Under the pieces are notes generated by a model that saw only the letters and a list, made by a program, of their open reading frames with translations, was not told the origin of the DNA and did no database searches. From Escherichia coli (GTDB lineage: Bacteria > Pseudomonadota > Gammaproteobacteria > Enterobacterales > Enterobacteriaceae): a stretch of DNA of 64,000 nt. This document shows, piece by piece, positions 3,028 through 33,600 of the stretch. Every line of letters starts with the position of its first letter. The first letter of the stretch is position 1. A program made the position numbers and the translations under genes. Where the stretch lies: assembly GCF_009931435.1 (NCBI RefSeq), contig NZ_CP043414.1. The stretch is one strand, 5' to 3'.

Positions 3028-3375
3028 GGTACGCATGATAAGACACGCCTGCGTCGCATCAGGCATTGGTGCATGGTGTCGGATGCGGCGCGTGCGCCTT
3101 ATCCGACCTACGGTTCAGGCCTGTAGGCATGATAAGACGCGTCAGCGTCGCATCAGGCATCTGCGCACGGTGTCGGATGCGCCGCGTGCGCCTTATCCGA
3201 CCTACGGTTCAGGCCTGTAGGCATGATAAGACGCGTCAGCGTCGCATCAGGCATTGGTGCACGGTGTCGGATGCGGCGCGTGCGCCTTATCCGACCTGCG
3301 GTTCAGGCCTGTAGGCATAATAAGACGCGGTAAGCGTCGCATCAGGCATCTGCGCACGGTGTCGGACGCGCCACA
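3028..3375. repeat. REP/BIME array, about 3.5 tandem units of roughly 95 bp
   Basis: Near-identical units GATAAGACGCGTCAGCGTCGCATCAGGCAT...GGTGTCGGATGCGCCGCGTGCGCCTTATCCGACCTACGGTTCAGGCCTGTAGGCAT repeated; six-frame ORFs here show the same peptide repeated, as expected for a repeat array. Confidence 0.8.
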
Positions 3376-3394
3376 CAACACATCCGACAACACC

Positions 3395-5281
3395 TTACTC
3401 TTCCATCGCCTGGCGGATCTGATCCAACGACGCAGGATCATCAATAGTCGTCAGATCCCCCGGATCGCGTCCTTCACAAATCGCCTGGATCGTACGGCGC
3501 AGCATTTTTCCGGATCGCGTTTTCGGTAATTGCGAGACAAACCAGACGTGCGCCGGGCGACCAAAGTTGCCAATCTGGCTGTCCACCAGCGCCATAATCG
3601 CCTTCTCTTGCGAGTGCGCCACCTCGCGATCTTCCAGACTGTCGCTCTCTTTCGGAATGACAAACGCCACCGCCACCTGCCCTTTCAGCGCATCTTTCAC
3701 CCCAACCACCGCCACTTCAGCAACGCCCGGATGACTGGAGATACTCTCTTCAATCTCGCGTGTGCCAAGCCGATGCCCGGCAACATTAATCACATCGTCA
3801 GTGCGCCCGAGAATAAAGTGATAACCGTCAGCATCGCGGATGCCCCAGTCAAAGGTGGCGTACACCGGACGGGAAAACAGCGACCAGTACGTCTTCACAA
3901 AGCGGTCGTCGTCGCCCCAGATGGTCTGAATACACCCCGGGGGCAGCGGCCCTTCTACCACCAGCATCCCTTTCTCGTTGACGCCGCACGGTTCGCCGGT
4001 GACTTCATTGAGCAACTGCACGTTGTATCCATACATCGGCACGCCGGGGCTTCCCAGACGTGTCGGCCTGTCGTCCAGACCGCGAGCAATCGCCATAATC
4101 GGCCAGCCGGATTCGGTCTGCCAGTAGTTGTCGATGACCGGCACATCCAGCGTATTGCTCACCCAACTGGCAGTCGGCTCATCCAGCGGTTCTCCCGCCA
4201 GATAGAGCACTTCCAGCGACGAGAGATCGTGTTTGCGAATTTCAGCGGTAGGGAATTTTTTCAGCACGCGGATGGCGGTCGGCGCTGAGAACATCCGGCT
4301 AACCTGATATTTCTCGACGATTTTCCACCACACGCCGCAGTCAGGCCAGGTCGGTAATCCTTCGTAAACGATAGTCGCCATCCCCGCCAGCAGCGGCGCG
4401 TAGACGATATACGAATGCCCCACTACCCAGCCGATATCCGACGCACAGAAGAACACACCGCCCGCTTTGCCACCAAAAATGGTGTCCATTGAGGTCGCCA
4501 GCGCCACCGCATAACCGCCGACGTCACGCTGTACACCTTTTGGTTTGCCGGTCGTGCCGGAGGTGTAGAGAATGCAGGAGGTTTCGTTGGATTCCAGCCA
4601 CGCCACCGGCACCCGCGCGCCGATGTGCTGATGGCGCAATGACGCGAAATCGACATCCCGTCCGGTAACGCGCGCCATTTTCGCCAGCCCGCGATCCACC
4701 AGCAAAACGTGGCGCGGCTGATGCTGCGCCTGACTTATCGCATCGTCGAGCAATTTTTTATAAGGAATGATTTTGCCACCGCGCGCTCCGGCATCTGCCG
4801 AGACAATCAGCACCGGTTTAGCGTCATCAATCCGCGCAGCCACGCTGTGCGAGGCAAATCCACCAAACACTACCGAGTGAATAGCGCCAATGCGCGCGCA
4901 GGCCAGCAGGGTAATATGCGCTTCGGCAATCATCGGCATATACACCAGCACCCGATCGCCACGCTGCACGCCCAGTGAGCGCAGCATTGACGCCACCGCG
5001 TTCACTTCGTCATGCAACTGGCGAAAGGTAAAGGTGCGCTCTTCTTCTGTTTCCGAAGAGACGGCAATCAGCGCCAGCGCCTCTGGCTGTTTCTCCAGCC
5101 AGCGGTCGATGGCGTTGTGGCACAAATTGGTTCGGCCTTCACAAAACCAACGGGCAAACGGCGGATTGCTGTGATCGAGCGTTTGCGTAAAGGGCGTCTG
5201 CCAGTCAATACGCCGGGCCTGCTCGGCCCAGAATTGCTCCGGTTCGTTAATCGAACGCTGATAAAATTCGCTAAAAGACAT
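3395..5281 (-). CDS. prpE: Propionyl-CoA synthetase (acyl-CoA synthetase family, AMP-forming)
   Basis: 628-aa ORF with the AMP-binding motif YTSGTTGKPKGV; last gene of the prpBCDE order. Confidence 0.93.
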   Translation of the reverse strand: MSFSEFYQRSINEPEQFWAEQARRIDWQTPFTQTLDHSNPPFARWFCEGRTNLCHNAIDRWLEKQPEALALIAVSSETEEERTFTFRQLHDEVNAVASMLRSLGVQRGDRVLVYMPMIAEAHITLLACARIGAIHSVVFGGFASHSVAARIDDAKPVLIVSADAGARGGKIIPYKKLLDDAISQAQHQPRHVLLVDRGLAKMARVTGRDVDFASLRHQHIGARVPVAWLESNETSCILYTSGTTGKPKGVQRDVGGYAVALATSMDTIFGGKAGGVFFCASDIGWVVGHSYIVYAPLLAGMATIVYEGLPTWPDCGVWWKIVEKYQVSRMFSAPTAIRVLKKFPTAEIRKHDLSSLEVLYLAGEPLDEPTASWVSNTLDVPVIDNYWQTESGWPIMAIARGLDDRPTRLGSPGVPMYGYNVQLLNEVTGEPCGVNEKGMLVVEGPLPPGCIQTIWGDDDRFVKTYWSLFSRPVYATFDWGIRDADGYHFILGRTDDVINVAGHRLGTREIEESISSHPGVAEVAVVGVKDALKGQVAVAFVIPKESDSLEDREVAHSQEKAIMALVDSQIGNFGRPAHVWFVSQLPKTRSGKMLRRTIQAICEGRDPGDLTTIDDPASLDQIRQAMEE

Positions 5282-7999: not shown

Positions 8000-8115
8000 T
8001 GTAGGGTCGAGATTGTTGTCGGATGCGACGCTATGCGTCTTATCCGACCTACAGTTCAGTTCATCCCGTAGGCCTGATAAGCCGCGTCAGCGACGCATCA
8101 GGCATCGGTTGTCGG
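8000..8115. repeat. REP element between prpC and prpB
   Basis: GGATGCGACGCTATGCGTCTTATCCGACCTACAG ... GTAGGCCTGATAAGCCGCGTCAGCGACGCATCAGGCATCGG palindromic REP motifs. Confidence 0.7.
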
Positions 8116-10851: not shown

Positions 10852-10861
10852 AATGCCGAAT

Positions 10862-10935
10862 CCAGCGCGAACGCCTTATCCGGCATAAATTTCAATAGAT
10901 GATCACCGATAAACTTACGCATCGGGCATGTTTAC
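10862..10935. repeat. REP-like element downstream of prpR
   Basis: GCGAACGCCTTATCCGGCATAAA ... CGCATCGGGCA partial REP palindrome. Confidence 0.4.
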
Positions 10936-11408: not shown

Positions 11409-12041
11409 ATGGATCCCTTGCACGCCGTTTACCTGACCGTAGGACTGTTCGTGATGACTTTTTTTAATCCGGGAGCCAATCTTTTTGTGGTGGTACAAAC
11501 CAGCCTGGCTTCCGGTCGACGCGCAGGAGTGCTGACCGGGTTGGGCGTGGCACTGGGCGATGCGTTTTATTCCGGGTTGGGTTTGTATGGTCTTGCGACA
11601 CTCATTACGCAGTGTGAGGAGATTTTTTCGCTTATTAGAATCGTCGGCGGCGCTTATCTCTTATGGTTTGCGTGGTGCAGCATGCGCCGCCAGTCAACAC
11701 CGCAAATAAGCACACTACAACAACCGATTAGCGCCCCCTGGTATGTCTTTTTTCGCCGTGGATTAATTACCGATCTCTCTAATCCACAGACCGTTTTATT
11801 TTTTATCAGTATTTTCTCAGTAACGTTAAATGCTGAAACACCAACTTGGGCACGTTTAATGGCCTGGGCGGGAATTGTGTTCGCATCAATTATCTGGCGA
11901 GTCTTTCTTAGTCAGGCGTTTTCTTTGCCCGCTGTGCGTCGTGCTTATGGGCGTATGCAACGCGTTGCCAGTCGGGTTATTGGTGCAATTATTGGTGTAT
12001 TCGCGCTACGCCTGATTTACGAAGGAGTAACGCAGCGGTGA
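11409..12041 (+). CDS. yahN: LysE/RhtB-family amino-acid exporter-like membrane protein
   Basis: 210-aa hydrophobic ORF; synteny. Start uncertain: an in-frame TGA lies immediately upstream of the ATG, and a short ORF in another frame precedes it. Confidence 0.65.
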   Translation: MDPLHAVYLTVGLFVMTFFNPGANLFVVVQTSLASGRRAGVLTGLGVALGDAFYSGLGLYGLATLITQCEEIFSLIRIVGGAYLLWFAWCSMRRQSTPQISTLQQPISAPWYVFFRRGLITDLSNPQTVLFFISIFSVTLNAETPTWARLMAWAGIVFASIIWRVFLSQAFSLPAVRRAYGRMQRVASRVIGAIIGVFALRLIYEGVTQR

Positions 12042-12670
12042 GCAGATAATTTACTCTCTACGTAATCAACCTGATTTGCCGAATCCCGCTCATCGGCGAT
12101 GATACCCCCCGTAATGCGTGGTCCTTATTTCCGATAAGTTTACTTGAGTCTTTAGCTTCCCATTTCAGCCCACTCTCCCCTGTGTGGGCTTTTTTCATTT
12201 GTCTGCTTCAGTGAGTAGCTGGCAATGCTCCATCCACTCTGCAAGGATGATAATAAGAGGATCTGATTCAGAAGAGTTTTGAAAAATTGGACCGCCATCG
12301 AGGCCTCGAACCCCGTACCATACAACAATCCTGGTTGTCGTCTGCTCTTCCTGATGAGCTAATGGCGGTTTGTGATATGAGCCTTACAGCATATTGTCTG
12401 TCAGGCTTGAGTGCGATGCGTAAGATACAGAAAAGACCCCACACAAACATGATGGAATTATGATTTTTTTCATATGAATGTCAACCAACACATTCATAAA
12501 ACACTCGCACAAGTTCACTTTTTAAGCAACATGACGCCGATCACAACAAAATATCGGCGAAAAAGGAGGGTAAATGCCATTTGACGTAGAGATAAGCAGA
12601 TGAAATGATTACCCGCTTTGCGATTCACTCTCTGATGGAATAAGAAATTGGAGATGGAAAAGTTTCTAAA

Positions 12671-13486
12671 CTAAAGAGTGTAGCGTATTTTAACGTGCTT
12701 ATTTACAGGATAATATTTGTCACCTAATTCCTGCACTCTATTAGATACCCATTGATTTAATCGTGCATCATCTCTGTATGTTTTTACGTTCAGAACGGAG
12801 AGCAATAACATCACTAGCGATTCAGGAAAAACAGGGTAAATATTTTTTAAGTGCAATAATAATTCATACGCAAGCGCCTGCTTAATAGGTGCGTCTGCGT
12901 CCGGAATGCGCGACATTTCGCGAAGCCATTTTTCTACATGCTCACATTCTTTCCCTTCACGGAAAAGTCTCAACAAAGGCATATGGTGCTCAAGAAGAAT
13001 GCATTTGCAATCTGTTCGTACTGAATCGATAAACTGCACTAATTTCTTAAGTCCGGTGAAGCGTCCGGCATGGATATTCTCTTTAATATCAAGAAACACG
13101 TCATCCTGATCATATACCCAAACGGTCCCTTTTTGATTTTCAAGTATCCGAAAAACAAACTTAATCGGGTAATCAGGGTAATCCACCCAGTCATAAACTC
13201 CAGGGAAATCATTAAACTGCACATTTATGGTAAGCGCATTGTCGGCTGCCCACTCGCAATCTCGTACGGCAGCCATGAGATAAATGAGTTTATCATCATC
13301 GACTAAATCATCACGACAATCATAAGGATAATCATAGTATTGTTTAATCAAAACCTTGAATATATCGACACAAGAAACCAGTGTACTTCTGATATCTTCA
13401 GGTAACTGATTGTTTTTAAACGTATTGTGTACGCTTTGTTTCGTATATAGCAACAAATTATTGTGCGGCGCTTTTAATGGTATCAT
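12671..13486 (-). CDS. yahL: Hypothetical protein, AT-rich orphan (YahL-like)
   Basis: 271-aa ORF in a markedly AT-rich block; no recognisable catalytic motifs; synteny with K-12 yahL. Confidence 0.6.
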   Translation of the reverse strand: MIPLKAPHNNLLLYTKQSVHNTFKNNQLPEDIRSTLVSCVDIFKVLIKQYYDYPYDCRDDLVDDDKLIYLMAAVRDCEWAADNALTINVQFNDFPGVYDWVDYPDYPIKFVFRILENQKGTVWVYDQDDVFLDIKENIHAGRFTGLKKLVQFIDSVRTDCKCILLEHHMPLLRLFREGKECEHVEKWLREMSRIPDADAPIKQALAYELLLHLKNIYPVFPESLVMLLLSVLNVKTYRDDARLNQWVSNRVQELGDKYYPVNKHVKIRYTL

Positions 13487-13728
13487 TGCGATCTCTCTTA
13501 AATAAAAATAAACGTCGCAGATAATAAAGCCCTGATTAAACCAGGCACTATCAGAAATCGCTCATAACTAATATATGCAGCATTGTGTACTGGAGGGAAT
13601 TAATTTAACAATTTGAATTTACATTATAGATTTTACTGCTACTTTGATAGTATTTCGCCCTTCTTAACTAAAAAGTTAAGTGGAGGGCGAAATTAATATG
13701 TTAAATCATAGAGCATTTATTAATTTTT

Positions 13729-14778
13729 TCAGTCTGTTAGTGTGCGATTATCGATAACAAAACGATATTTCACATCACCACGTAGCATTCGCTCATAGGC
13801 TTCATTAATTTGATCGGCCCGAATCATCTCTATATCAGCCACGATGCCATGTTCGGCGCAAAAATCGAGCATCTCCTGAGTTTCTGGAATGCCGCCAATC
13901 ATAGAACCGGCTATCGCACGGCGTTTCATGATCAGGTTGAAAACTTCCGGCGATTTATGCGGTGTCGCAGGCGCACCAACCAGGGTCATGGTGCCATCGC
14001 GCTTCAGCAAGGTGGTAAAATCATCGAGATTATGTGGCGCAGCTACGGTATTCAAAATGAAATCGAAACTCTTCACATGAGCCGCCATCTCATCGGCATT
14101 GCGCGAGTTAACAACTTCATCGGCCCCAAGGGCTTTTGCCGCTTCGCGTTTTGACTCAGACGTGGTAAATGCCACTACATGCGCCCCCATCGCGTGGGCC
14201 AGCTTTATCCCCATATGCCCCAGACCGCCAATGCCAACCACGCCCACTTTTTTACCCGGCCCGGCCTGCCAGTGACGCAGCGGCGAGTACGTGGTGATCC
14301 CTGCACACAATAAAGGCGCCACCGCCGCCAGTTGCGCTTGCGGGTGACGAATACGCAGAACATATCGCTCGTGAACGACAATCTGTTGTGAGTAGCCGCC
14401 CAGCGTATGGCCCGGTTCGTCCGGCGTCGGCGAGTTATAGGTGCCGGTCATGTGATCACAGTAGTTTTCCAGCCCGTCTTCACACTCTTCGCAATGTTTA
14501 CAACTGTCGACAATGCAGCCGACACCGACCAGATCGCCCGGCGCATATTTTTCTACCTGATCACCAACGGCTACCACGCGCCCTACAATTTCATGGCCCG
14601 GCACGCAGGGATAAACCGTCCCCGCCCACTCGGAACGGACCTGGTGGATATCGGAATGGCAGACGCCACAGTAAGCGATTTCAATTTTGACATCATGCGG
14701 TCCCGGTTCACGCCGGGTGATATCCATCGGTTCCAGCGGTTGTTTAGCGGAATATGCACCAACAGCTTTGATCTTCAT
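13729..14778 (-). CDS. yahK: Zn-dependent NADPH aldehyde reductase / alcohol dehydrogenase
   Basis: 349-aa ORF with Zn-ADH signature GHEIVG and catalytic-Zn cysteines (CGVCHSD). Confidence 0.85.
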   Translation of the reverse strand: MKIKAVGAYSAKQPLEPMDITRREPGPHDVKIEIAYCGVCHSDIHQVRSEWAGTVYPCVPGHEIVGRVVAVGDQVEKYAPGDLVGVGCIVDSCKHCEECEDGLENYCDHMTGTYNSPTPDEPGHTLGGYSQQIVVHERYVLRIRHPQAQLAAVAPLLCAGITTYSPLRHWQAGPGKKVGVVGIGGLGHMGIKLAHAMGAHVVAFTTSESKREAAKALGADEVVNSRNADEMAAHVKSFDFILNTVAAPHNLDDFTTLLKRDGTMTLVGAPATPHKSPEVFNLIMKRRAIAGSMIGGIPETQEMLDFCAEHGIVADIEMIRADQINEAYERMLRGDVKYRFVIDNRTLTD

Positions 14779-14864
14779 TGTGTTTACTCCTGATTAGCTA
14801 TGTGTATTTGGCGATGCCTGAAATGCCATCGCAGCAAAACGCGTCCATTGAATATAGCCAATAT

Positions 14865-15851
14865 TTAAACCACCCGATCCAGCCCCAACATGCCGCGAGC
14901 CTGAATGAAACAGAGCAGCAACGTTCCCCATAAGGCCATCGTCAGGTAGGGGCTTATCCCGAGAATATTGAAGCCGCTTTCAATAATTTGCAGAAGAAAC
15001 AGCGCCAGCACCATACCAATTATCCGCCCGCTGCCGCCGTCCGGATTAACCCCGCCGAGTACTGCCGCGAGGATTGACACCAGCAAGTACGATTCGCCAT
15101 AAGAGGCCTTAGCCGAGTTGAGTTTCGACATCATCAAAAATGCCGCTACCGCACAAAGCAAGGCGGAAATGACATACACCCATATCAGCACCCGACGCGT
15201 GTTAATACCGGAGTAAAGTGTTGCTCGTTCGTTAGAACCAATCAGATAAATGGATTTACCGAGCGGCGTTTTCTCCAGCAATATCCACAGCCCCAGCGCC
15301 ACTGCGGTAAACAACCACATCGGTAGCGGAATACCGAACCACTGTGCATGATTCAACCACAGCACCCATGAGGGATAATTGGCAATGGCGCTACCGCCTG
15401 TCACCAGAATATTTACCCCTTTGAGCAACGTCATCATCCCAAGCGTTGCAAGAATTGGCGACACTCGAATACCGGCAATCAATACGCCATTACATAAACC
15501 AATTATCACCGCCGCACCAGCGCCCGCCAGCAGCGTAGCGACAACCGTAGTAATACCCGGCGGATACTGAGTCGCCACCCACGCCATCACCAGTGAACAG
15601 GCGTTAGCGGTAGCAATAATTGACAAGTTAATGCCGCCACAAAGCATGGTCACCGCCATAGCCAACGCCAGAATGCCCAGCACGGGCATTTGCGAAGCGA
15701 CAGACTGGAAGTTACTTATCGACCAGAAAATCTCCGGCATAGTAATGCTGAACGCGGCAACAGTTAGCACCAGCAGGCCGATCAAATAAAACTCAACGTT
15801 ATTACGCCACGATTTTTTCATAGCAGACTCCGGTTCTGATGCTGACTCCAC
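14865..15851 (-). CDS. ABC transporter permease (RbsC/LsrD-like)
   Basis: 328-aa polytopic membrane protein; overlaps the upstream permease gene; part of a 4-gene ABC operon. Confidence 0.8.
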   Translation of the reverse strand: MESASEPESAMKKSWRNNVEFYLIGLLVLTVAAFSITMPEIFWSISNFQSVASQMPVLGILALAMAVTMLCGGINLSIIATANACSLVMAWVATQYPPGITTVVATLLAGAGAAVIIGLCNGVLIAGIRVSPILATLGMMTLLKGVNILVTGGSAIANYPSWVLWLNHAQWFGIPLPMWLFTAVALGLWILLEKTPLGKSIYLIGSNERATLYSGINTRRVLIWVYVISALLCAVAAFLMMSKLNSAKASYGESYLLVSILAAVLGGVNPDGGSGRIIGMVLALFLLQIIESGFNILGISPYLTMALWGTLLLCFIQARGMLGLDRVV

Positions 15852-16789
15852 GCCGTGGCACTAATGCTGGCAACGATGATGATGCCTGTGATCAATGTTT
15901 GCCAGTAAGACGAGACTCCCAATAAATTTAGCCCGTTTTGCATCACTGCCAACAACACCACGCCGAGCAAAGTACCGGTTAACGTGCCGCGCCCGCCGAG
16001 CAAACTAGTGCCGCCAAGCACCACCGCAGCCAGTACTGTCAGCTCATAACCCAGAAGAGAATCGGGGGCGACAGTCATCACCGTCCACGACTGCACTACA
16101 CCCGCAGCACCAGACATCAATCCCATATAGCCGTAAACGAAAAGTTGCAGTTTCAGCACGCTAAAGCCGATGCGACTGGCTGATTCACGGTTCCCGCCAA
16201 GGGCATAAATTTTGCGCCCTACACTGGTGAAATTCATGATAAACGCTGTCAGCAGCACCACCGTAATCATGGCGATCAGCGGCAGACCAAGGCCATAGTC
16301 ATAGCCGTCAACATCGGTGTACTTGAACAACATTACCCCCTGCTCAAACCACGGCGGAAAGTCGTACAGCCACACACCTTTACTCAACCATAACAGCAGG
16401 CCATAGAAAATATTCAGCGTCGAAATGGTGATGATGATAGAAGGCACCCGTAGGCGATTAACCAGTAAGGCGTTTATTAAGCCAAGTAAAATGCCGATGC
16501 CGCCCGCCAGGGCAAACGCGACAGCAAAGTTGCCACCCATTTTTTGTAGCAACAGCACCATGCCGTATTGCGCAATGATGGTCATTGCTGGAAACGAAAT
16601 ATCAATTCCACCGGAAATTAACACCACAAACAAACCACAGGCGAGAATAGTCAACATGGCATAGTTATTGGCGAGATCGTACAAATTACCGAATGTCAGA
16701 AACTCGTCGCTGCGCCAGGCAAGGCCAACAAACAGCACTATAATCAGTAATGCCAGCCAGAATTCATGACGTTTTTTCAGTTCAGCCAT
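15818..16789 (-). CDS. ABC transporter permease (RbsC/LsrC-like)
   Basis: 323-aa polytopic membrane protein; overlaps the ATPase gene by 8 nt. Confidence 0.8.
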   Translation of the reverse strand: MAELKKRHEFWLALLIIVLFVGLAWRSDEFLTFGNLYDLANNYAMLTILACGLFVVLISGGIDISFPAMTIIAQYGMVLLLQKMGGNFAVAFALAGGIGILLGLINALLVNRLRVPSIIITISTLNIFYGLLLWLSKGVWLYDFPPWFEQGVMLFKYTDVDGYDYGLGLPLIAMITVVLLTAFIMNFTSVGRKIYALGGNRESASRIGFSVLKLQLFVYGYMGLMSGAAGVVQSWTVMTVAPDSLLGYELTVLAAVVLGGTSLLGGRGTLTGTLLGVVLLAVMQNGLNLLGVSSYWQTLITGIIIVASISATAWSQHQNRSLL

Positions 16790-18281
16790 TTACCACCTCC
16801 GCAATCCTGGCCTGAGAACTGCTGTCAGGCAGGAAGCTATGGGTGATCTGACCTTTTTGCATTACCAAAATCCGGTGGCTTTGATACCACGCTTCTTCAA
16901 TTTCATCGCAGATCATCAATACCGCAATGCCATGAGCCGCCAGATCGCTGATAATGCCGTATATTCCTGCTTTGTTGGCGATATCAACACCGACAGTCGG
17001 GCTATCGAGAATCAACAGTCGTGGCCCAATCGCCAGCCATTTGGCGATCGATACTCGCTGCGCGTTACCCCCGGAAAGCGTATTCACCGGGAGATGTGGG
17101 TCAGAGACTTTGATGGTCAATGCCTTAATTAGCCTGTCCACCAGGTCACGCACTTTAGCTTCACTCAGAAAGCCGAAGCGATCTTTTACCTTGTGAAAAA
17201 CAGTGCTAATGATGTTGTCTTCAATAGATTGCGCCATCACCAAACCGCGCGACATGCGATCTTCCGAAACATAACCAATACCGTGGCGGATGGCGTCCTG
17301 GTTACTATGCAGTGTAACCGGCTGACCGTTGATGAGGATCTCACCAGCATCCGGTCGGGTCATACCAAACAGACTCAGACATAATTCCGTGCGCCCCGCA
17401 CCAAGCAGGCCAACAATCGACACCACTTCGCCCGCTTCCACCCGCAAGTTAATATTTTGATATTCCCCATGACGACTTAAATTACGCACCTCCAGCACTG
17501 GGGTGCTGGATTTTCCCTGCCACAACTCTCGCACCTGATATTCAAACTCCTGGCCGGTCATCAGGAAACCGAGTTGTTTTGTGGTCATCTCTGCAGCCGG
17601 AAAGGTCCCGACCAGCTCACCATCTTTCAACACTGAAATACGGTCGGAAACTTCCATCACCTCTTCCAGACGATGACTGACGAAGACCACGCAGATCCCG
17701 CGTTCCCGCAATTGATGCACCACCTGTAATAACCCTTGCACTTCCTGATGGGTCAGCGAAGCGGTTGGTTCATCCATCACGATCAACCGTGCGTCCTGCG
17801 CCAGTGCACGGCAAATTGCCACCAGCTGACAGCGGGCAATTGAAAGCTCAGAAACGAGCGTATCCAGTGGCAATGTGACGTTAATACTGGTCATTGCCGC
17901 CTGCGCCACCTCACGCAGACGACGTCGGTTAACAAACAGTCCGTGGTGATAGTGATTCACGGCGATATTCTCCCAGACACTCAGGTTAGGAAATAAAGAG
18001 AGGTCCTGATAAATCACCTGAATCCCCTGCGCCACCGAAGCGGCGGGTGTCAGCTTTGACCAGTTTTTCCCACCAAGCGTAATTTCCGCCCCCTCATCCG
18101 GGCGATAAACACCGGACATAATTTTAATCAACGTCGATTTACCACAGCCGTTTTGCCCGGCAAGGCAGTGCACCTCACCCGACATAAAGTCGAGAGAAAC
18201 ATCGCGCAGCGCTCGCGTGGCATGAAACGTTTTGTTGATATGACGAAGGGAAAGGAAGGTTTCCATAGCATCCCCTGGCAA
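16782..18281 (-). CDS. ABC transporter ATP-binding protein, fused double cassette (RbsA/LsrA-like)
   Basis: 499 aa with two Walker A motifs (GQNGCGKST and GLLGAGRTE) and Walker B LIVMDEPTASL. Confidence 0.88.
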   Translation of the reverse strand: MPGDAMETFLSLRHINKTFHATRALRDVSLDFMSGEVHCLAGQNGCGKSTLIKIMSGVYRPDEGAEITLGGKNWSKLTPAASVAQGIQVIYQDLSLFPNLSVWENIAVNHYHHGLFVNRRRLREVAQAAMTSINVTLPLDTLVSELSIARCQLVAICRALAQDARLIVMDEPTASLTHQEVQGLLQVVHQLRERGICVVFVSHRLEEVMEVSDRISVLKDGELVGTFPAAEMTTKQLGFLMTGQEFEYQVRELWQGKSSTPVLEVRNLSRHGEYQNINLRVEAGEVVSIVGLLGAGRTELCLSLFGMTRPDAGEILINGQPVTLHSNQDAIRHGIGYVSEDRMSRGLVMAQSIEDNIISTVFHKVKDRFGFLSEAKVRDLVDRLIKALTIKVSDPHLPVNTLSGGNAQRVSIAKWLAIGPRLLILDSPTVGVDIANKAGIYGIISDLAAHGIAVLMICDEIEEAWYQSHRILVMQKGQITHSFLPDSSSQARIAEVVNG

Positions 18282-18314
18282 TAAGAATCGGGGCTTTCGC
18301 CCCGAAGAAATGGA

Positions 18315-19301
18315 TTAATAAAGTGAGTCAATATTGTCTTTGTTGACCAGTAATACCTTATGGAAACGGATAATTCGCTTATCCATATCTACGTCGGCCT
18401 TACCGAGATTCTCCATTTCTAATCCAGGTTTGATCTCTTCACCCTTCAGCAACGTGCTGGCGACGGCCGCGAGTGCGTAACCTGCAGAGGCCGGATCGTA
18501 AGTAATCCCTTCGGTGATATCACCACTTTTAATCAGTGATGCCGCCTGTGAAGGGATCATCATGCCATAGACTGCGACTTTATTTTTCGCCCGTTTCTCT
18601 TTCACTGCACGTCCCGCGCCAATCGGACCGTTTGAACCAAAGGAGACAACCGCTTTCAAGTCAGGATAGGTTTTCATGAGGTCCAGTGTGGTACGACGTG
18701 AGTCATCCACACTCTCGGCAACCGGCATGCGGCGGGTAACTTCATGCATATCCGGGTAATGCTCTTTCTGGTATTTCACCAGCAAGTCAGCCCATAAGTT
18801 ATGCTGCGGCACGGTCAAACTACCCACGTAAATCACATAGCCGCCCTTGCCACCCATGCGTTTCGCCATATGTTCAACATATTCAGCGGCAAATTTTTCG
18901 TTATCAATGATTTCGATATCCCAGTTAGCACTTGGCTGACCGGGGGATTCGTTGGTCAGAACCACAATTCCGGCATCTCGCGCTTTTTTGAATACCGGTT
19001 CCAGCACGTTGGCATCGTTTGGCACGATAGTAATTGCGTTAACCTTACGAGCGATTAAATCCTCAATAATTTTAACCTGTTGAGGAGCATCAGTACTTGA
19101 AGGTCCCACCTGTGACGCATTAACACCAAAGGCTTTACCTGCCTCGACCACACCTTCGCCCATGCGATTAAACCACGGCATACCATCGACTTTAGAGATA
19201 TTCACCACGACTTTTTCCGCTGCCTGGAGCGGCGAGGAAATTAGCGCAGCGCCTAATAACAGCGAAGACACCATATTGATAACAAAACGTTTATTCATCA
19301 T
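18315..19301 (-). CDS. Periplasmic substrate-binding protein of the ribose/AI-2 (LsrB-like) class
   Basis: 328 aa with signal peptide MMNKRFVINMVSSLLLGAALISSPLQA; the C-terminal ...VLLVNKDNIDSLY resembles the LsrB C-terminus as recalled. Confidence 0.8.
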   Translation of the reverse strand: MMNKRFVINMVSSLLLGAALISSPLQAAEKVVVNISKVDGMPWFNRMGEGVVEAGKAFGVNASQVGPSSTDAPQQVKIIEDLIARKVNAITIVPNDANVLEPVFKKARDAGIVVLTNESPGQPSANWDIEIIDNEKFAAEYVEHMAKRMGGKGGYVIYVGSLTVPQHNLWADLLVKYQKEHYPDMHEVTRRMPVAESVDDSRRTTLDLMKTYPDLKAVVSFGSNGPIGAGRAVKEKRAKNKVAVYGMMIPSQAASLIKSGDITEGITYDPASAGYALAAVASTLLKGEEIKPGLEMENLGKADVDMDKRIIRFHKVLLVNKDNIDSLY

Positions 19302-19551
19302 TTCAGCCTCATTGCAGGGTAGTCAGGAAGTGTTCGCCCAAATTAGCGCGCTGGAGAGAATAAGAATTTTCGAATATTTTTATGCAGAATAAACAGCCCT
19401 ATTTCAGGCAGCTATTAAAAATTTGGTTATAAATATGGACAAAATGGGCAGCAACAATAAGTGTGACATTCATCACGTAAAAAATAGTAAAACAAACACA
19501 ATTAACGATATTTTATGTTTGTGAGTTTATTTCATGCGGATAGAGAGTTAT

Positions 19552-19962
19552 CTACACAACTTCAATGAGGGCATATTCTTCAAAAATAACGTCCATTTCG
19601 GGTGAATAGCTTCCCTCTGCCTGGAAAAAACGACGGTGTTCATTGCGCCAATATTCAAGACTAAGATCACCTTCACCTTCCTTGCGGGCAATCTCTTCGG
19701 TGACATCAGAAAAGCGCAGTAAATGCAGGCCAATCACTCTGATAACACATACAGGCTCACCACGGCTATTTTCTACAATCTTATACTCGCCAATCATCGG
19801 AAATGCGTTGTCTTCAATACATCCTGCCAGCGAACCACAGGAAGCAGTTTTAACACCAGTTGCAATCAACGTTGCGAGGTAATCGGCCAACGCTGCTGAA
19901 TCGCCAAAACTACAAAAGGAAGCATGGGGATATTTTTGTGAGATTTTTTCTTTTATGGTCAT
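19552..19962 (-). CDS. Small cytoplasmic protein, possibly ASCH-domain
   Basis: 136 aa when started at MTIKEK (11th codon of the 146-aa ORF); family assignment is from pattern recall only. Confidence 0.5.
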   Translation of the reverse strand: MTIKEKISQKYPHASFCSFGDSAALADYLATLIATGVKTASCGSLAGCIEDNAFPMIGEYKIVENSRGEPVCVIRVIGLHLLRFSDVTEEIARKEGEGDLSLEYWRNEHRRFFQAEGSYSPEMDVIFEEYALIEVV

Positions 19963-20260
19963 GGCAATATTTTCGCGATAACAGAACAACAAATTACATC
20001 TTAATTACTGTCGATAACTATCAGCAAGAGGATCATTGGTTTTTCTATGTTTAATCTTTTTTATCCGAAGCAGGTCACATTTATGGCTTGATAAATACCT
20101 TTGTTAAAACTCACTTTTGTGTATTTCTCTCAAATAATCCCCTGGAAATTATGCCGGGAGATTATAAAGTTCAGGATCATTCATTAACAAACCATTCCCG
20201 CCCCACTCCCTGGGGCTTAAATCTCTTACTATTCACCGTTGCAGGCGTTTCAAATTCGTA

Positions 20261-21652: not shown

Positions 21653-22603
21653 TTACGTTTTAATAATATGGGTGCCCGTTTCGCCACGCAGCGCCGCGGG
21701 CAGGCATTCCGGCGTGGTGATAATCACTTCTTTACCGCCCTGTTCCAGGAACGTCAGGCTGGCGATGATTTTTGGCAACATGCTGCCTGGCGGGAAATGC
21801 CCTTCCTGCATATAGCGGGTCATGGTGGCAATATCCACCCGATCCAGCGCCTGCTGCTGCGGTTTGCCAAAATGAATACACACTTTTTCGACGCCAGTGG
21901 TGATCACCAGAATGTCGGCGTGAATTTCACGGGCCAATAGCGCGGTAGAGAGATCTTTGTCGATAACCGCGTCCACGCTTTGGTAATCCCCCGCTTCACT
22001 GCACACCACCGGAATTCCACCGCCGCCCGCGCCAATTACCACAAAGCCTTGTTGGATCAGCGCCTTAATGGCAGGTGCTTCGACAATACGTTTCGGTTCC
22101 GGCGAGGCGACCACGCGGCGATAGCCGCGTCCGGCATCTTCAACAAAACGCCAGTCAGGGTTTGCCTTTTGTAATTCGTTACGCTGGCTTTCACTGAAGA
22201 ATGCGCCAATGGGCTTGGTGGGGTGAGCAAATCCCGGATCGTTTTTATCCACTTCCACCTGAGTCACCACGGTGACGGCTTTTTTCTCGCCGTGGCGCGC
22301 CAGCCGATTGTTCAGCGCCTGTTGGATCAAGTAGCCAATGCCGCCTTGCGTATCCGCCACACAGTTCGCCAGCGGCGTTAAGGGCAGCCCTTCGCGCTCG
22401 TGGGCAATCTCCGCACGGCGTAGATCCAGCCCAACCTGCGGCCCGTTGCCGTGGGTCAGCACAATGTCGTAATCGGAAGCCAGCATTTCCAGCACCGTAT
22501 CGGCGACGGCCTTCACCGCCTCCGCCTGATGCTCAATCGACTGGCTGGCGTTATCTTTGATAATGCTGTTGCCACCAATGGCAACGACCACAAGTTCTTT
22601 CAT
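21653..22603 (-). CDS. yahI: Carbamate kinase family protein (YahI-like)
   Basis: 316 aa; N-terminus MKELVVVAIGGNSI typical of the amino-acid-kinase/carbamate-kinase fold. Confidence 0.82.
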   Translation of the reverse strand: MKELVVVAIGGNSIIKDNASQSIEHQAEAVKAVADTVLEMLASDYDIVLTHGNGPQVGLDLRRAEIAHEREGLPLTPLANCVADTQGGIGYLIQQALNNRLARHGEKKAVTVVTQVEVDKNDPGFAHPTKPIGAFFSESQRNELQKANPDWRFVEDAGRGYRRVVASPEPKRIVEAPAIKALIQQGFVVIGAGGGGIPVVCSEAGDYQSVDAVIDKDLSTALLAREIHADILVITTGVEKVCIHFGKPQQQALDRVDIATMTRYMQEGHFPPGSMLPKIIASLTFLEQGGKEVIITTPECLPAALRGETGTHIIKT

Positions 22604-22609
22604 GTTGTT

Positions 22610-23105
22610 ATGTCCGCTACAGAGGGTGATGGGGTTATGACCAACGCCAGACAGCCTGATGCGCTACGCTTATCAGGCCTACAGATTCTTGTGCCATTCG
22701 TAGGCCGGATAAGGCGTCCACGCCGCATCCGGCAATGGTGACAAATGCCTGATGCGCTACGCTTATCAGGCCTACAGATTCTCGCGCCACTCGTAGGCCG
22801 GATAAGGCGTTCACGCCACAACCGGCAATGGTGACAAATGCCTGATGCGCTACGCTTATCAGGCCTACAGATTCTTGTGCCATTCGTAGGCCGGATAAGG
22901 CGTCCACGCCGCATCCGGCAATCGTGACAAATGCCTGATGCGCTACGCTTATCAGGCCTACAGATTCTTGCGCCACTCGTAGGCCGGATAAGGCGTTCAC
23001 GCCGCATCCGGCAATGGTGACAAATGCCTGATGCGCTACGCTTATCAGGCCTACAGATTCTCGCGCCACTCGTAGGCCGGATAAGGCGTTCACGCCACAT
23101 CCGGC
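22610..23105. repeat. BIME/REP array, five tandem units with a period of about 92-95 bp
   Basis: GCCTGATGCGCTACGCTTATCAGGCCTACAGATTCT...GTAGGCCGGATAAGGCG...GCATCCGGCAATGGTGACAAAT repeats starting near 22652, 22747, 22840, 22933 and 23025. Confidence 0.85.
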
Positions 23106-23118
23106 ATGAACATGTCAG

Positions 23119-24537
23119 TCAGACGCCGTAACGTTCGCACCAGCCAAGAATGGCTTTCTCGAAGCAGGCGAATGGTGGATGCACAATGCCCGCGCCAATC
23201 ATGCCGACGCCTGCATCTTTATGGGCAATGGCGGTGTTGATCACCGGCAGAATGCCACTGCTACCCACGCGGGTGATGTCGATTGCCGTCGGCACACCCA
23301 TAAAACCGAGCAGCGGAATGGTCACGTTGGGGTTTTCGCCGAGAGTGATTTCGCACATCTGACGGGAGAAATCGATAGCCTCTTCCACCGTACCGCCCAC
23401 CAGCGCGACGATTGCAGGCGCGGTCGCCATAGCAAATCCACCAATGCCGTAGGTTTCGGTGATGGCGCTGTCGCCAATATCCAGCCCCGAATCTTCCGGC
23501 TTATAACCGGCAAACATCGGGCCGATGACCTGTTGCGCCGGGCCGGTAAACCACTGCCCCGGCAGGCCGCTGACTCGCAGGCCGAACTCGACACCATTAC
23601 GCGCCATCGTGGTCACCACGGTGCTGTATTCGATGCCGTGCGCCGCATCCATCGCCGCTTTACACATCGCCATCCACGTCGGGCCGGAGAAGTAGTCGCT
23701 GCTGGCGACAAACTCAAACACTTCGCGCTGTTGCTCGACGGAATAACCCGCCTGAATAATCCCCGGCGTCAGCGCCTGAATCAGCAGCGTCGTCCCGGCG
23801 TTATTGCGGTTATGGCATTCATCGCCCATATGCAGCGCCTGCGCCAGCATCAAGCGCAGATCAATCTCACCGAGAATTTTCATCGCGTCACGCAGCATTG
23901 GCCCCTGCACATCGCGCATCCAGTTGAGGCGGTCAATCACGCTCTGATCGTTGGCACCCATACGCAAAATCTTCGCCATCTGCTCGCTCATATTGGTGTA
24001 AGCGATGTTGCCGAAGGTTTTGTTTTTCACGATGTGCATAAACATCGAGGCAGAGGTAACACCCGCCATCGAACCCACGCAGTCATGCTCGTGGCACGGC
24101 GAGAAAGTGATCTCCCCGGAAGCCGCCAGTTCAGCCGCCTCGTCAAGATCTTTCGCCAGCCCTTCGAACACCAGCGCCCCGGTGACCGCGCCTTTCATCG
24201 CGCCGCACATTTTTTCCCAGGTCACTGGCGGCCCGGCGTGAAGAATGGTTTTCACCGTCATGCCTGGCACCACGTTAATCGCCTGATCAAAACCAATCAG
24301 CACCGGATGCGACTGGATAATGCGTTCCAGCGCCTGCTGGTTAGCGGCGGCGATTTTGTCTGCCAGCGGCGAATCGGCAATGTTGTCCAGTGCCTGCACC
24401 ACCTGCATATTGCCCTGCCCCGGCGGCGTCCAGTCGAGTTGGGTTACTTCTACATGCTGCTTTTTCAGATCATCGCTAAACATAGCGATGCCGACATTAA
24501 TAACGTTCAACGGTTGGCTAAACAGTGACTGGCTCAT
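23119..24537 (-). CDS. yahG: DUF1116-family protein (YahG-like; paralogue of YlbE)
   Basis: Start placed at MSQSLF (8th codon of the 479-aa ORF), giving a TGATG stop/start overlap with yahF. Confidence 0.75.
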   Translation of the reverse strand: MSQSLFSQPLNVINVGIAMFSDDLKKQHVEVTQLDWTPPGQGNMQVVQALDNIADSPLADKIAAANQQALERIIQSHPVLIGFDQAINVVPGMTVKTILHAGPPVTWEKMCGAMKGAVTGALVFEGLAKDLDEAAELAASGEITFSPCHEHDCVGSMAGVTSASMFMHIVKNKTFGNIAYTNMSEQMAKILRMGANDQSVIDRLNWMRDVQGPMLRDAMKILGEIDLRLMLAQALHMGDECHNRNNAGTTLLIQALTPGIIQAGYSVEQQREVFEFVASSDYFSGPTWMAMCKAAMDAAHGIEYSTVVTTMARNGVEFGLRVSGLPGQWFTGPAQQVIGPMFAGYKPEDSGLDIGDSAITETYGIGGFAMATAPAIVALVGGTVEEAIDFSRQMCEITLGENPNVTIPLLGFMGVPTAIDITRVGSSGILPVINTAIAHKDAGVGMIGAGIVHPPFACFEKAILGWCERYGV

Positions 24538-29402: not shown

Positions 29403-30491
29403 TCAACCACCTGCTTTCATTACCCATTCAGAGATAAATTTATTACCCGGTACTGGCGGAGAGTACAAATAGCCCTGCAAAAAGTGAACGCCTTTGCCGA
29501 TCATTAAATCCGCCTGCTCCTGGGTTTCTACCCCTTCCGCCACGATACTCAGACCAGGCTTACGCGCCAGTTCGACAATATTGTCCACAATATGACCGGA
29601 AATTTCGTCGACACTCGCCATTTGCACAAACGACTTGTCAATTTTAATAAAATCGACCGGAAACGCCTGCAGATAACGATAGGTCGCATAACCCGTACCA
29701 AAGTCATCCAGCGCAAAGGTAATGTTGTGCTGATGAAGGCTGTCAAATATCGCTCTGGCTTCTGGCGTTACCGGAATGGGGTTGCGTTCCGTTAGCTCAA
29801 GAACCAGCTTGATTTTATCGTTACCTAATTTCTTGACCAGGTTCAGACACTCTTTTTCAAATCCTGCGGCCAAAAAACATCCTGCCGAGACGTTGATTCC
29901 AATATGGAAATTATCCGGCAGCAAATGTTTTACTGGCATCAGAATATCCGCAGTCTGTTTCATCAGCTGGCGAGTCATTATGACAATAAGACCGGATGAC
30001 TCCGCCAGAGGAATAAACTGATCCGGTGGGATAATTCCCGTTTGCGGATGTTCCCAGCGAACAAGCACTTCACAGCCCGTCAGTACCCCTGTCTGCGCGC
30101 AGAAAACGGGCTGGATCCACGGTTTGAATTCGTGATTTTCCAACGCCAGACTGATGGCTTCAGGCGTGACGATATGGTGACAACGGTTATCAGGAATATA
30201 AAAATTATTTTTATTTCCCTTGCCACTGATGACTTGCGGATGATATTGAAAAAAGATATCCCGCCAGAAAGTAATATCACTCTGGATGCCTAATTTTTCA
30301 TACAACTGCTTCTTCTGATGTGAAATTGTCTTTGCGCTACGATTTCTGTATTGTGATATTTCTGTAACCGACATTCCCTCCATTAGCAGCTTGAGTAAAA
30401 GCCGTTCTTTTTCGGACACGATACCAGGCAAGGTCAAATTAACCGTTGCCCCGAACTCTTCCAAAAAAACACTCAAATCATGCGAAGCCAT
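29403..30491 (-). CDS. pdeL: c-di-GMP phosphodiesterase with LuxR-type HTH and EAL domain (PdeL/YahA)
   Basis: N-terminal LuxR HTH (LLMEGMSVTEISQYRNRSAKTISHQKKQ) and EAL-domain motifs (ELTE, DDFGTGYA); start placed at MASHDL. Confidence 0.85.
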   Translation of the reverse strand: MASHDLSVFLEEFGATVNLTLPGIVSEKERLLLKLLMEGMSVTEISQYRNRSAKTISHQKKQLYEKLGIQSDITFWRDIFFQYHPQVISGKGNKNNFYIPDNRCHHIVTPEAISLALENHEFKPWIQPVFCAQTGVLTGCEVLVRWEHPQTGIIPPDQFIPLAESSGLIVIMTRQLMKQTADILMPVKHLLPDNFHIGINVSAGCFLAAGFEKECLNLVKKLGNDKIKLVLELTERNPIPVTPEARAIFDSLHQHNITFALDDFGTGYATYRYLQAFPVDFIKIDKSFVQMASVDEISGHIVDNIVELARKPGLSIVAEGVETQEQADLMIGKGVHFLQGYLYSPPVPGNKFISEWVMKAGG

Positions 30492-30632
30492 TGAACACAC
30501 CTTGATGAAATCTTGTGCGCCAGCTAAATCTGCTTGTCTTCACTCTAACTGATAAAGCTGACTGCAAGAAAATGACACAGAGAGCCGAATTATCTCCCGT
30601 TCGGCTCTCTCTCCTTTTACTCATTATTCAGA

Positions 30633-33600
30633 TCAGAATTGCCACTTAATGCCCACCATTGCAGAGGTGTCATTATATCCTCTATCGGCAACCTGAACGC
30701 CCACATTCCCCCAGACATTCAGGTTGGCATTTAGCTGTCCTTCCACCCCGGTTTTTATCTCAGCAATATTTCGGGCGCCATCCTGAGTGACGGAGACGCC
30801 ATCCATGCTGGTGCTGAAATCCTTACTGTTATGCAGCCAGTTCACTTCTACAAACGGCTGGAACTCGCGGGATTTACCCTCATCCATTTTATGGTGGCTC
30901 TTCAGCCAGGTTTTTACGCCAAGTCGGGTTTGAACATTGCCATCACCGTTGCTATGAACGAGGGTTCCGTTGCTTTCGCGGTGATTATCGGCTTTGACTC
31001 CCATCCAGGTAACCTGTGCTTGCGGCTGAACATACCATTCATTACGCGTTCCCTGGCTGCCATTAAATTCAGCTAATTTGTGTTTGTATCCAGCTTCCAG
31101 TGAAGCGGTAAATCCTTTTGATTTATAGGATTCACTTTGTAAGTCATCCCCTTTCACTGTGTTATCAAACCAACTGTACTGCGCCCAACTGTCGAGATAC
31201 GCGCCATTACGCGACTCGTCATCGGCATACCAGGTGGCATAGAGGCCTGTGCTATATCCGTTCACACTCGCTTTTGCACGATAACCAGTTCGCGAGGAAA
31301 TGGTTTTGCTGTCGCTGTTGCCATATCCCGCCATGACCCCAACATGCCAGCGATCGCTGCCGTTTTGGCTCCACTGCGCGATATCGCCTCCCAGTTGCAG
31401 AACATAGCGATTGCTTTGGGTTTTCAGCTGGCCGCTGCCATCACGCCATTTATTATGACCACCTTCATGGCGCATCCACATAGTGGTTTGTTTCTGCTCA
31501 CCCGTCACCATGTCGGTATAGTACGTATTACCCAGACGCTCATGCAGACGCGTGTTGAACATGGTATTCGCTGCTGCAAGGTTCGCAATGTAGCTACCCG
31601 CCTCCGGTCGCAGGTCATTATCCACATTCAGATCCGGACCCGGCGTAGGTGTCGGGTTAGGGTTCGGCTCTGGATTCGGGTTTGGCTCCGGATTCGGCAT
31701 CGGGTCGGGCTCCGGCTGCAGTTCAGGAGAATCACTGCCGCTGGTCAGATACCAGTTACCGCTATTTGCCCCCTGTCCACGCGCGAGAGTGTAGTCATAT
31801 GCCCCCGCAACGATACGCCCAGCCTGAACAAATTCGCCCTCAGACTTACCGTCTACATGGATAAGTTCGATACCGTTAAGGGTTTTCGCACCTGTACCGC
31901 CAGCGTTATTCACCGTAACGGCAGTCGTGCCGCTAGTATCGCCCTCGACAACCAATTTATCGGTTACTGAGTCATCGCCATTCAGTACCGTATTCATTAC
32001 TAGTTGACCGTTATTACCGTGGTAGTTCCCCTTCACCACCAACACGTTGCCAGCTTGCTGTCCTGACATTCCGGTCATCAGCGTACCGTTGTTGGTCAGA
32101 TTGCCACCCAGGGTGTAATTCACTGGTGCAGCCGCTCTTTTTTCAGCGCTATTATTCAGCGCCAGGGTGCCGTTGTTCTCAATGTTTGCGTTACCCATTC
32201 CCTGCGCATGACTAACCAGGACATTAGCCGAGCTAGCAATGTTCACATTCGCCGTCAGGTTGCTATTATCGCCCGCTATGTCCAGCGTGCCGCCCTGGAT
32301 ATTCAGTTCCCCGTCGCCGCTTAACGAACCGCTTGAAGTCCCCCCGTTGGCAACCGTCAGAGTGCCGCCGTTTAAGTTCAGCAACGAATCGGCGCTAGCC
32401 TTGAGCGTACCCACGGTCTGGCTGTGACCATTCATATCCAGTTCAGTCTCTGCCGCCAGACGCAGTTCATGGGTATTACCCAACACGTTATCGTTATTCA
32501 ACAAAAGCGTCCCGCTACGCAGATCGGTAACACCGGTATAGTCATTGTCTTTGTTTGAAAGCGATACGGTCTGACCTTTCTGGCTGCTGAAGGCCAGGTC
32601 ACCACTGCCGGTAACCTTTGCACTGAGATCGGCGGCATTCTCGCTCTTACCGTTGGCACTCAGCACCAGGGCGTCACTGTCGGTAGCCTGCAAATCAAGC
32701 TGGGTCAGGCCGTAACCGATATACAGACCGTCATTGTTTACCCCACTCGTCAGGCGATAATCATAAGTGCCGACGGCCGCTTTTTGCCCATTCTGCTGAA
32801 TATCACGCTGTGATCTGCTGGAGAGGATTTGCCCATTTTTATTCTGTAGTTGAAGATTACCCGCATCCCCCAGAACTTCCGCACCCTGTGCATCAACCAG
32901 CTTAATGGTGCTGTTACCATCATCGACTTCAGTGAGCGATAACGCAGAGTCAATATCACGAGAAACAGAGCGTACAACGTCACTGTCAGTAACCTGAATC
33001 ACACCCTCGCCGCGCAAATCCAGCGTTTTACTAACGTTGACCGTCCCTTCTGTCATCTGCGCGCCAGCGGCCAGGGCACCAAAATCAACGGTTCCGCCCG
33101 AGAATCCCAGAGTGCTAATGGAGTGAGCGCCCTTACCCACTGTTATCTGGCTTCCCTGACCCGCAGTGATCCCGCCTTTCTGCAGAAACTCAGCATTTTT
33201 TTCCAGGTTAAATGTCGTGTTCTGGAACGCCAGTGAACCCTGGAACCAGTCTGTATAAGCAAACTCATCGAAGGAGAATTCGTGATTCCCCATGTTTATT
33301 TCAACAATGCCTTTACCTTCAAGATCGTTATCAAATACCCAATCTTTGTTGGCATTAATTTGCAGTTTGCCATCAACATCCAGTTCTGCACGGCCGATGT
33401 TCTTATCTTCAGAAATAACAGCGACAGCATCGGAAGCGACATCAATATATCCGCTGAATGCATAGTTATTGCCGGTCAACTCCACCGTCCCACTGTCGAT
33501 ACTTATTGTACCGTTGCCGGAAATCTTATTGGCAAAGGTCATGCTATCGTCAGCCTTCAGGTGTAATTTCCCGCGGTTGGTGATTTCTGCTGTACCTATA

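Follow-up and report, generated by a model that had tools for sequence, protein, structure and literature searches.

Three kinds of bacterial interspersed mosaic element (BIME), built from repetitive extragenic palindromic (REP) sequences, have been distinguished, namely BIME-1, a single Y-L-Z1 doublet with an integration host factor (IHF) site in its long L linker, BIME-2, with Y and Z2 in tandem and short linkers, and the atypical BIME, which covers any other combination of Y, Z1, Z2 and linkers, usually in multiple copies (PMC3333891, PMC1187871). Tandem BIMEs have been described as varying between strains in the number of units present at one site (PMC3333891, PMC1187871). The effect of such an array on gene expression has been reported for REP325, an array of 12 hairpins in the yjdMN operon: its deletion lowers the ratio of upstream to downstream mRNA from about 35 to about 1, the array stabilises the upstream message and yields a ladder of truncated transcripts, and bicyclomycin roughly doubles the read-through, i.e. 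the attenuation is partly bicyclomycin-sensitive (bioRxiv 10.64898/2026.03.23.713779). Genome-wide, tandem gene pairs separated by REPs display a raised ratio of upstream to downstream expression. Here we compare with these systems a five-unit REP/BIME array found between the genes yahI and yahG in a stretch of 64,000 nucleotides of Escherichia coli DNA (assembly GCF_009931435.1, contig NZ_CP043414.1; the window). The array is the already known REP23 of strain K-12, once annotated as the gene yahH (b0322), and thus an unremarkable representative of a family of repeats that is well known. By analogy with REP325, we consider it probable that this non-coding array in the yahDEFG-yahIJ cluster acts on the yah mRNA through its hairpins.

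By employing Tandem Repeats Finder, the array was located at 22654-23106, with a period of 93, 4.9 copies, 94% matches, no indels and a score of 822, while an independent repeat search returned four overlapping 186-nt copies at a spacing of 93 nt and with 92-100% identity. Together with the motif scans described below, this defines five units of 93 bp, which are wholly extragenic and fill most of the 515-bp gap (22604-23118) between the start of yahI at 22603 and the stop of yahG at 23119. The original prediction, made from the sequence of the window, of a REP/BIME array in a 515-bp gap between these co-oriented genes was thereby borne out by the two repeat searches and by the consensus matches. 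Its starting point of 22610 proved to be about 44 nt too early, as the repeat begins at 22654 and the preceding 50 nt (22604-22653, minus strand), which separate the last REP from the yahI start codon, are unique. In the alignment this spacer is conserved throughout, even in the allele without REPs. At the opposite edge, the yahG stop codon (TGA, 23121-23119) is followed by a spacer of 13 nt (23106-23118, minus strand), which extends to the foot of the first Y hairpin. The same prediction had described five near-identical palindromic units of about 93 bp; the number and the length of the units hold, but each of them consists of two inverted REP palindromes and two linkers, which brings the number of hairpins to ten.

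Each unit is laid out as a 29-nt short-Z REP on the plus strand, a linker of 17 nt, a 34-nt Y REP on the minus strand and a linker of 13 nt. The short-Z REP, GCCTGATGCGCTACGCTTATCAGGCCTAC in plus orientation, was identical in all five units in a Hamming scan (22654-22682, 22747-22775, 22840-22868, 22933-22961 and 23026-23054). The five Y REPs had zero to two mismatches to our working Y consensus, whose centre (GTGAAC) differs by one base from that of the Y query of PMC11208160 (GTAAAC). Copy 4 (22979-23012) matches this consensus exactly, copies 1 (22700-22733) and 3 (22886-22919) have one mismatch each, copy 2 (22793-22826) has two, and copy 5 (23072-23105) was identified by the consensus scan and by its fold. 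Neither the short-Z nor the Y consensus found any match in 100 dinucleotide-preserving shuffles of the window (mean 0.00 in both cases). All ten REPs, whether 29 or 34 nt in length, are imperfect palindromes ending in CTAC on their own strand, with GTAG/CTAC feet in alternating orientation, which is what characterizes the REP family, and the five-fold alternation of Z(+) and Y(-) with conserved 17- and 13-nt linkers is likewise that of a BIME.

Folded singly in the sense of the operon, the hairpins were predicted at -16.9 to -21.3 kcal/mol for Y and -11.5 kcal/mol for Z. Copy 2 is the weakest Y hairpin (-16.9 kcal/mol), while Y copy 1 reaches -21.3 kcal/mol. The first hairpin that RNA polymerase and ribosomes would meet after yahG is Y copy 5, and the last one of the yah mRNA would be Z copy 1 (-11.5 kcal/mol). 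A fold of the whole spacer (541 nt) was also computed, but gave long-range Y-Z pairings of negligible ensemble frequency; as it is uninformative for co-transcriptional folding, the single-hairpin folds were used. When 23 units from 8 strains were compared, 98.8% of the stem cells were paired, and two compensatory changes from G-C to A-U were found in one of the units. Variable columns were concentrated in the linkers (14 out of 30, as compared to 12 out of 63 in the REPs; Fisher p=0.012; 23 units). The pairing, the density of variation in the linkers and the lack of any codon-position excess (see below) suggest that selection, if any, has acted on the hairpins rather than on a protein.

As judged from its sequence, the array is an atypical BIME by the published scheme, with Y and short Z joined by BIME-2-type linkers in tandem. 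It shares with BIME-2 the tandem copies, the short linkers, the alternating REPs and a variable number of units at a fixed locus (five here, zero to five across strains). BIME-2 carries the long Z (Z2), however, whereas the Z of the yah array is the 29-nt short form, i.e. its units are not Y + Z2. Long Z REPs, of 35-36 nt, are found at REP325, tldD-yhdP, sucB-sucC and the flanks of rayT, and the possibility of a canonical BIME-2, with the short Z taken as Z2, was rejected since the four BIME-2 or Y-Z2 loci taken from the literature all carry a long Z. In full-length, single-piece matches a long linker connects the short Z to Y, which is the arrangement of BIME-1, and the assignment of the short Z as Z1-type was made by elimination. 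With BIME-1 (RIP/RIB) the array accordingly has the same two REP types in common, Y and short Z, but BIME-1/RIP is present in single copy with a long L linker containing the IHF site, while the yah array is tandem and without the L linker. Since its linkers are of only 17 and 13 nt, IHF binding is not expected; the earlier suggestion of an IHF site finds no support here, as such sites go with the long L linker of BIME-1.

REP325 and the yah array are both intra-operon tandem inverted REP doublets with a Y REP and linkers of 17 and 13 nt, in which 11 of the 17 and 10 of the 13 bases are identical. The six units of REP325 measure 100 bp and contain a long Z (Z2), the five of the yah array measure 93 bp and contain a Z that is 7 nt shorter, the use of the short Z accounting for the period of 93 rather than 100 nt. 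The two are opposite in orientation relative to transcription, and a function has been shown only for REP325. Four of the yah units also match the Rfam family naRNA4 (RF02564), which was built on REP325 RNA, with 70-78 bits on the plus strand (gathering score 59.5 bits), and it is because of the inverted orientation that the threshold is passed on this strand only.

These four matches above the gathering score would invite the interpretation that small RNAs of the naRNA4 kind are made from the array, bind HU and help to condense the chromosome, in line with the HU binding and nucleoid effects reported for REP325 RNAs in the original naRNA4 work (PMC4550694). The matches are antisense to the yah genes, however, the sole promoter-like site on the plus strand is at chance level (see below), and the match reflects homology between REPs and not function. 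The nucleoid-condensing role of naRNA4 itself has moreover been withdrawn by later work. We therefore take the RF02564 match to indicate REP homology and not an RNA that binds HU, and regard such a role for the yah array as extremely improbable.

The segment between yahI and yahG was found in thousands of genomes (megablast against 5,426 complete E. coli genomes). Upstream lies yahG (23119-24537, minus strand; 472 aa, DUF1116/YlbE family according to the RefSeq annotation of matching loci) and downstream yahI (21653-22603, minus strand; 316 aa), which belongs to the carbamate kinase family (NCBIfam NF009007, with a score of 645 bits and a cut-off of 266; RefSeq annotation). From the neighbouring annotation, the order of the cluster is yahD-yahE-yahF(fdrA-like)-yahG-[array]-yahI-yahJ, with yahI, yahJ and yahF confirmed by NCBIfam. 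The yah genes are co-oriented and several of them overlap or abut their neighbors. On the operon (minus) strand no promoter-like or intrinsic-terminator-like site was found within the gap, the counts of the scan as a whole being at chance level. A gap of this kind, in a cluster of co-oriented and abutting genes, makes a single yah transcription unit plausible. A promoter-like site on the plus strand, TCGACT-16-GATAAT at 22537-22564, is directed towards the array from within the 5' end of yahI. It is the only one found on this strand, compared to 0.9 expected, and would yield transcripts in the naRNA4 orientation.

If the spacer is transcribed with the cluster, its RNA would fold into as many as ten stable hairpins, each with -11 to -21 kcal/mol, which would block 3'-to-5' exonucleases and protect the upstream yahDEFG message. 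Since about 500 nt of the transcript would be both untranslated and structured, we propose that part of the transcription ends within the array, in some cases via Rho, leaving yahI-yahJ expressed below yahDEFG, and that this polarity would be stronger with more units. The first hairpin could also act on translation. A REP hairpin at most 15 nt past a stop codon is reported to stall ribosomes (Liang et al. 2015, as cited in PMC12306157), and with 13 nt from the yahG TGA to the first paired base of Y (23 nt in some alleles) the array lies within that distance and may hinder the termination of YahG translation. On the DNA, the Y repeats may in addition be gyrase sites. The most likely net effect, by analogy with REP325, is that the array would favour yahDEFG over yahIJ, the more so with more units. 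The original prediction had already put forward an mRNA stabiliser and partial terminator that could set apart the expression of the two operon halves, and these proposed roles agree with the experimental results on REP325, which is equivalent in structure.

The same element has been described in the O157:H7 strain EDL933 (Neuhaus et al. 2016) as a REP element (REP23 of K-12) of the BIME type with five repeat blocks, and the yahH annotation has later been removed (PMC4765031). In K-12, four units, at about 339.75-340.12 kb, occupy a gap of 421 bp and the open reading frame (ORF) yahH (b0322) is annotated over them; the number REP23 also fits with the presence of REP24-REP26 just downstream in that strain. 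The K-12 and O157:H7 elements share with the window the site between yahG and yahI, the units of Y and short Z and the distance of 13 nt to the yahG stop. K-12 has four units. O157:H7 has five like the window, but the O157 allele is only 96% identical across the 1101 bp of the query, and its 1-nt deletions change the reading frames of the ORFs. The units of the window are closest to those of L003 (98.2%), an allele with four units, and the fifth unit of the window is therefore likely to have been a separate gain.

The original prediction had proposed a comparison of copy number across strains. When carried out, this comparison revealed zero to five units. Among the fetched alleles, all with the array at the same site and with intact flanks, O157:H7 had five units, K-12 and L003 four, L004 three, L005 two, L006, L007 and L010 one each, and L008 none. 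A systematic sample down the ranked matching records gave 54 rows with both flanking genes, in which the units were counted from the spans of the records. A single unit was the most common state, in 23 rows plus one odd allele (about 43%), followed by four units in 13 rows (24%), none in seven (13%), five in five (9%), two in three (6%) and three in two (4%). As RefSeq is biased to clinical lineages, these shares describe sequenced genomes and not nature. A separate sample of 40 rows gave an agreeing distribution, and alleles with more than five units were not seen among the sampled genomes. The alleles closest to the window were the four-unit L003 (98.2% over the 1.1-kb locus query) and the one-unit L010 (98.0% over 20 kb); none of the complete genomes was identical to the window. 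As the closest genomes carry four units and one, and the window five, copy number shifts on short time scales. The 13-nt junction to the yahG stop is present in the window, K-12, O157, L003, L004 and L007, while L005, L006 and L010 have 23 nt and a different spacer, and these two junction types suggest more than one history for this edge of the array.

Within the window, units 1 and 3 are identical at 98.9% and neighboring units at about 93.5%, a higher-order pattern of two units that points to a recent duplication of a two-unit block. A REP doublet in the yahG-yahI spacer would have been amplified or contracted in steps of 93 bp, either by unequal recombination or slippage between units, or by the REP-associated transposase RayT. 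It has been proposed that BIMEs are non-autonomous and that RayT mobilises them (PMC2817692, PMC3333891), and the yah unit is an inverted REP doublet like those which flank, and are processed by, the E. coli RayT (PMC2817692, PMC3333891). The REPs flanking RayT itself are Y and long Z, however, whereas the yah array has the short Z. In K-12 the RayT gene (RayT/YafM) is located about 90 kb from the yah cluster, and no mobilisation event is documented for the yah locus. The array is also one site among many: the locus query had matches in 5425 out of 5426 complete E. coli genomes, and the median number of matching places in a genome was 28.

All of this could be taken to mean that the array is a neutral or selfish repeat, i.e. 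a REPIN-like doublet which has expanded in a tolerant spacer, lacks a function specific to the locus and influences yah expression, if at all, incidentally and without selection for it. The spread from zero to five units with one as the commonest number and none in about 13%, the closest genomes (98% identity) with one or four units instead of five, and the two-unit pattern, typical of recent duplication, all agree with this, and we regard it as a real though lesser possibility. Yet a neutral origin is compatible with an effect on RNA, as an operon spacer containing ten stable hairpins will influence the RNA even in the absence of selection. The maintained pairing of the hairpins, with its two compensatory changes in one unit, also speaks against pure neutrality.

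The REP-free allele L008, representing the roughly 13% of the sampled genomes without REPs, has a gap of 95 bp (L008:805-899), which contains an unrelated 10-bp hairpin (CCUUCUCCCU/GGGGAGAAGG). The fold of this gap as a whole was not unusual compared to shuffled sequences (z = -1.2). A hairpin at the position of the REPs would fit with a mild preference for a stem-loop after yahG, and as a hint that such a structure is favoured it is another point that a strictly neutral account would have to accommodate.

Several observations weigh against a hairpin-mediated effect on the yah mRNA, or at least against its being required or as strong as that of REP325. The array is dispensable, with about 13% of the sampled genomes having no REP and about 43% a single doublet, i.e. 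it is absent or minimal in over half of them. As it is inverted relative to REP325 with respect to transcription, the REP325 results may not transfer quantitatively, and on the minus strand, the sense of the operon, the RF02564 scores (47-56 bits) stay under the gathering score. In the REP325 study itself, the effects were context-dependent and two to four hairpins gave no detectable Rho dependence (bioRxiv 10.64898/2026.03.23.713779). REP23 is not among the rows listed in that study's table of Rho-binding REPs, a screen from which REP325 is also missing. The sense RNA is furthermore not C-rich (C/G = 0.91), unlike classical Rho loading sites. Despite these points, we hold an action on the yah mRNA through hairpins to be the probable role of the array.

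The dispensability bears equally on a role at the level of DNA, as it does on any required function. In such a role the Y repeats would be strong, transcription-independent sites of gyrase binding and cleavage, and the array could by this means constitute a local topological buffer in the yah cluster. Tandem BIME arrays are enriched in gyrase cleavage sites, which fall for the most part in REPs of the Y type and give a stronger signal upon a block of transcription (PMC6379681); the yah array has five near-consensus Y REPs. The published enrichment concerns a subset of BIME-2 (Y + Z2), though, while the yah array has the short Z, and the yah locus is not named in the text or in the examined supplements of that study (PMC6379681). 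Taken together, this makes the gyrase role unlikely.

Both ORFs that cross the array can be explained as by-products of the repeat. The 152-aa ORF (22635-23093, minus strand) begins with GTG and has the frame of the annotated 'YahH' (VNALSGLR...), as seen from its translation and from the comparison of strains, while the 166-aa ORF (22600-23100, minus strand) is a second open frame, the stop of which overlaps the yahI start (ATGA). Translated, both are periodic with 31 aa, and the two frames are open at once. That these ORFs are artefacts of the repeat, as the original prediction had it, gains support from the periodicity, from a length that tracks copy number and from the lack of a codon-position excess, with the RefSeq YahH entries and one footprint report as a caveat.

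This caveat deserves some consideration, as 'protein YahH' is annotated over the array in many strains in RefSeq, and a 465-nt ORF of EDL933 (X002) was covered by ribosome footprints (56 reads per kilobase per million, coverage 0.61; PMC4765031). The period of 93 is moreover divisible by 3, so that the frame is kept when units are gained or lost, and in the window the stop of the 166-aa frame shares an ATGA with the start of yahI. On these grounds it could be argued that YahH is a real repeat protein, encoded in the 152-aa frame, or in the 166-aa frame in this strain. Footprint reads are nevertheless difficult to place when the repeat occurs in five-fold tandem and is also dispersed genome-wide, and no mass-spectrometry count is given for the ORF among the listed rows of Table 1 of the same study (PMC4765031). 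The two overlapping frames are plain 31-aa periodic read-throughs, and the ORF, with a length that follows copy number, is gone in alleles with zero or one unit. Annotated products differ between strains in start, end and length (90, 98, 106 and 121 aa). Variable sites showed no third-position excess, with 7, 8 and 11 at codon positions 1, 2 and 3, respectively (p=0.61; 26 columns, 23 units), the first Y hairpin contains the start codons, and no Shine-Dalgarno sequence was seen upstream when the sequence was inspected. For yahH we thus did not find what marks a protein-coding gene, i.e. a conserved ORF, a coding substitution pattern and a start, and we consider a genuine YahH protein very unlikely.

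The only family match to the ORF above cut-off is the cell division inhibitor SidA, an artefact of summed repeats: on the ORF at 22635-23093, NF033228 (29 positions) scored 56 bits against a cut-off of 35, but no single stretch passes, and the match was discarded as a false positive. A weak match to the DNA polymerase III delta-prime subunit was likewise without any individually significant stretch and was rejected on the same grounds.

The ATGA overlap between the stop of the 166-aa frame and the start of yahI (22600-22603) was also seen in L003 and L004, and is a classic arrangement for translational coupling. In O157:H7, 1-nt deletions in the linkers interrupt the 166-aa frame, and K-12 also carries such a deletion. 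One could imagine from this a heritable, frame-dependent switch of yahIJ instead of a fixed attenuator, in which the gain and loss of units (93 nt = 31 codons) and 1-nt indels in the linkers determine whether an open frame crosses the entire array as far as the ATGA. Provided that ribosomes leaving yahG re-initiate in this frame, 18 nt downstream, translation of the array would melt the hairpins, suppress the Rho-dependent attenuation and couple the translation of yahI to that of yahG. We give this idea very little credence.

Another feature of the short-Z REPs is that each of them contains an exact natural IS621 target core (ATCAGGCCTAC; target according to PMC11208160), e.g. at 22672-22682. 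There are five such cores in the array and seven in the window, compared to 0.01 expected by chance.

Other REPs were also found in the window. A second tandem BIME array is present at 3029-3370 (period 94, 3.6 copies, 91% matches) and consists of Y-like and long-Z REPs. It lies between prpE (3395-5281, minus strand) and codB (1619-2878, minus strand), at what corresponds to the position of REP26 in K-12, and has three naRNA4 matches above threshold on the minus strand, i.e. sense to prpE and codB. Just downstream of codA (254-325) there is one short-Z REP, accompanied by the degenerate remnant of a Y, and further on a pair of REPs at 8018-8103 and a weak Y-like match at 10855-10888.

In gene content the window differs from K-12 by an ASCH-domain gene and a four-gene ABC importer of the sugar type between yahJ and yahK (about 12000-20260). 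The importer, which is absent from K-12, sits downstream of yahJ behind gaps of about 270 and 250 bp, and none of the present results joins it to the yah transcript, with whose downstream half the original prediction had grouped it. Farther away, in the 30000-32000 region, the autotransporter adhesin gene ehaA adjoins pdeL, as in several non-K-12 lineages.

The array is a catalogued REP element, its ORF has been discussed in print and the roles proposed here are standard for the family, so its value as a discovery is small. It does provide a clear example of how annotation pipelines keep presenting a repeat read-through as a gene, under the names "protein YahH" or "hypothetical protein" and with varying length, and the false positive of NF033228 on the repeat ORF could likewise mislead automatic annotation. 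More importantly for the biology of these elements, the yahG-yahI site amounts to a natural allelic series of zero, one, two, three, four and five doublets in otherwise similar operons. Such a series could be used to relate the number of hairpins to upstream stabilisation versus downstream attenuation, a relationship that the REP325 work has addressed at one locus.

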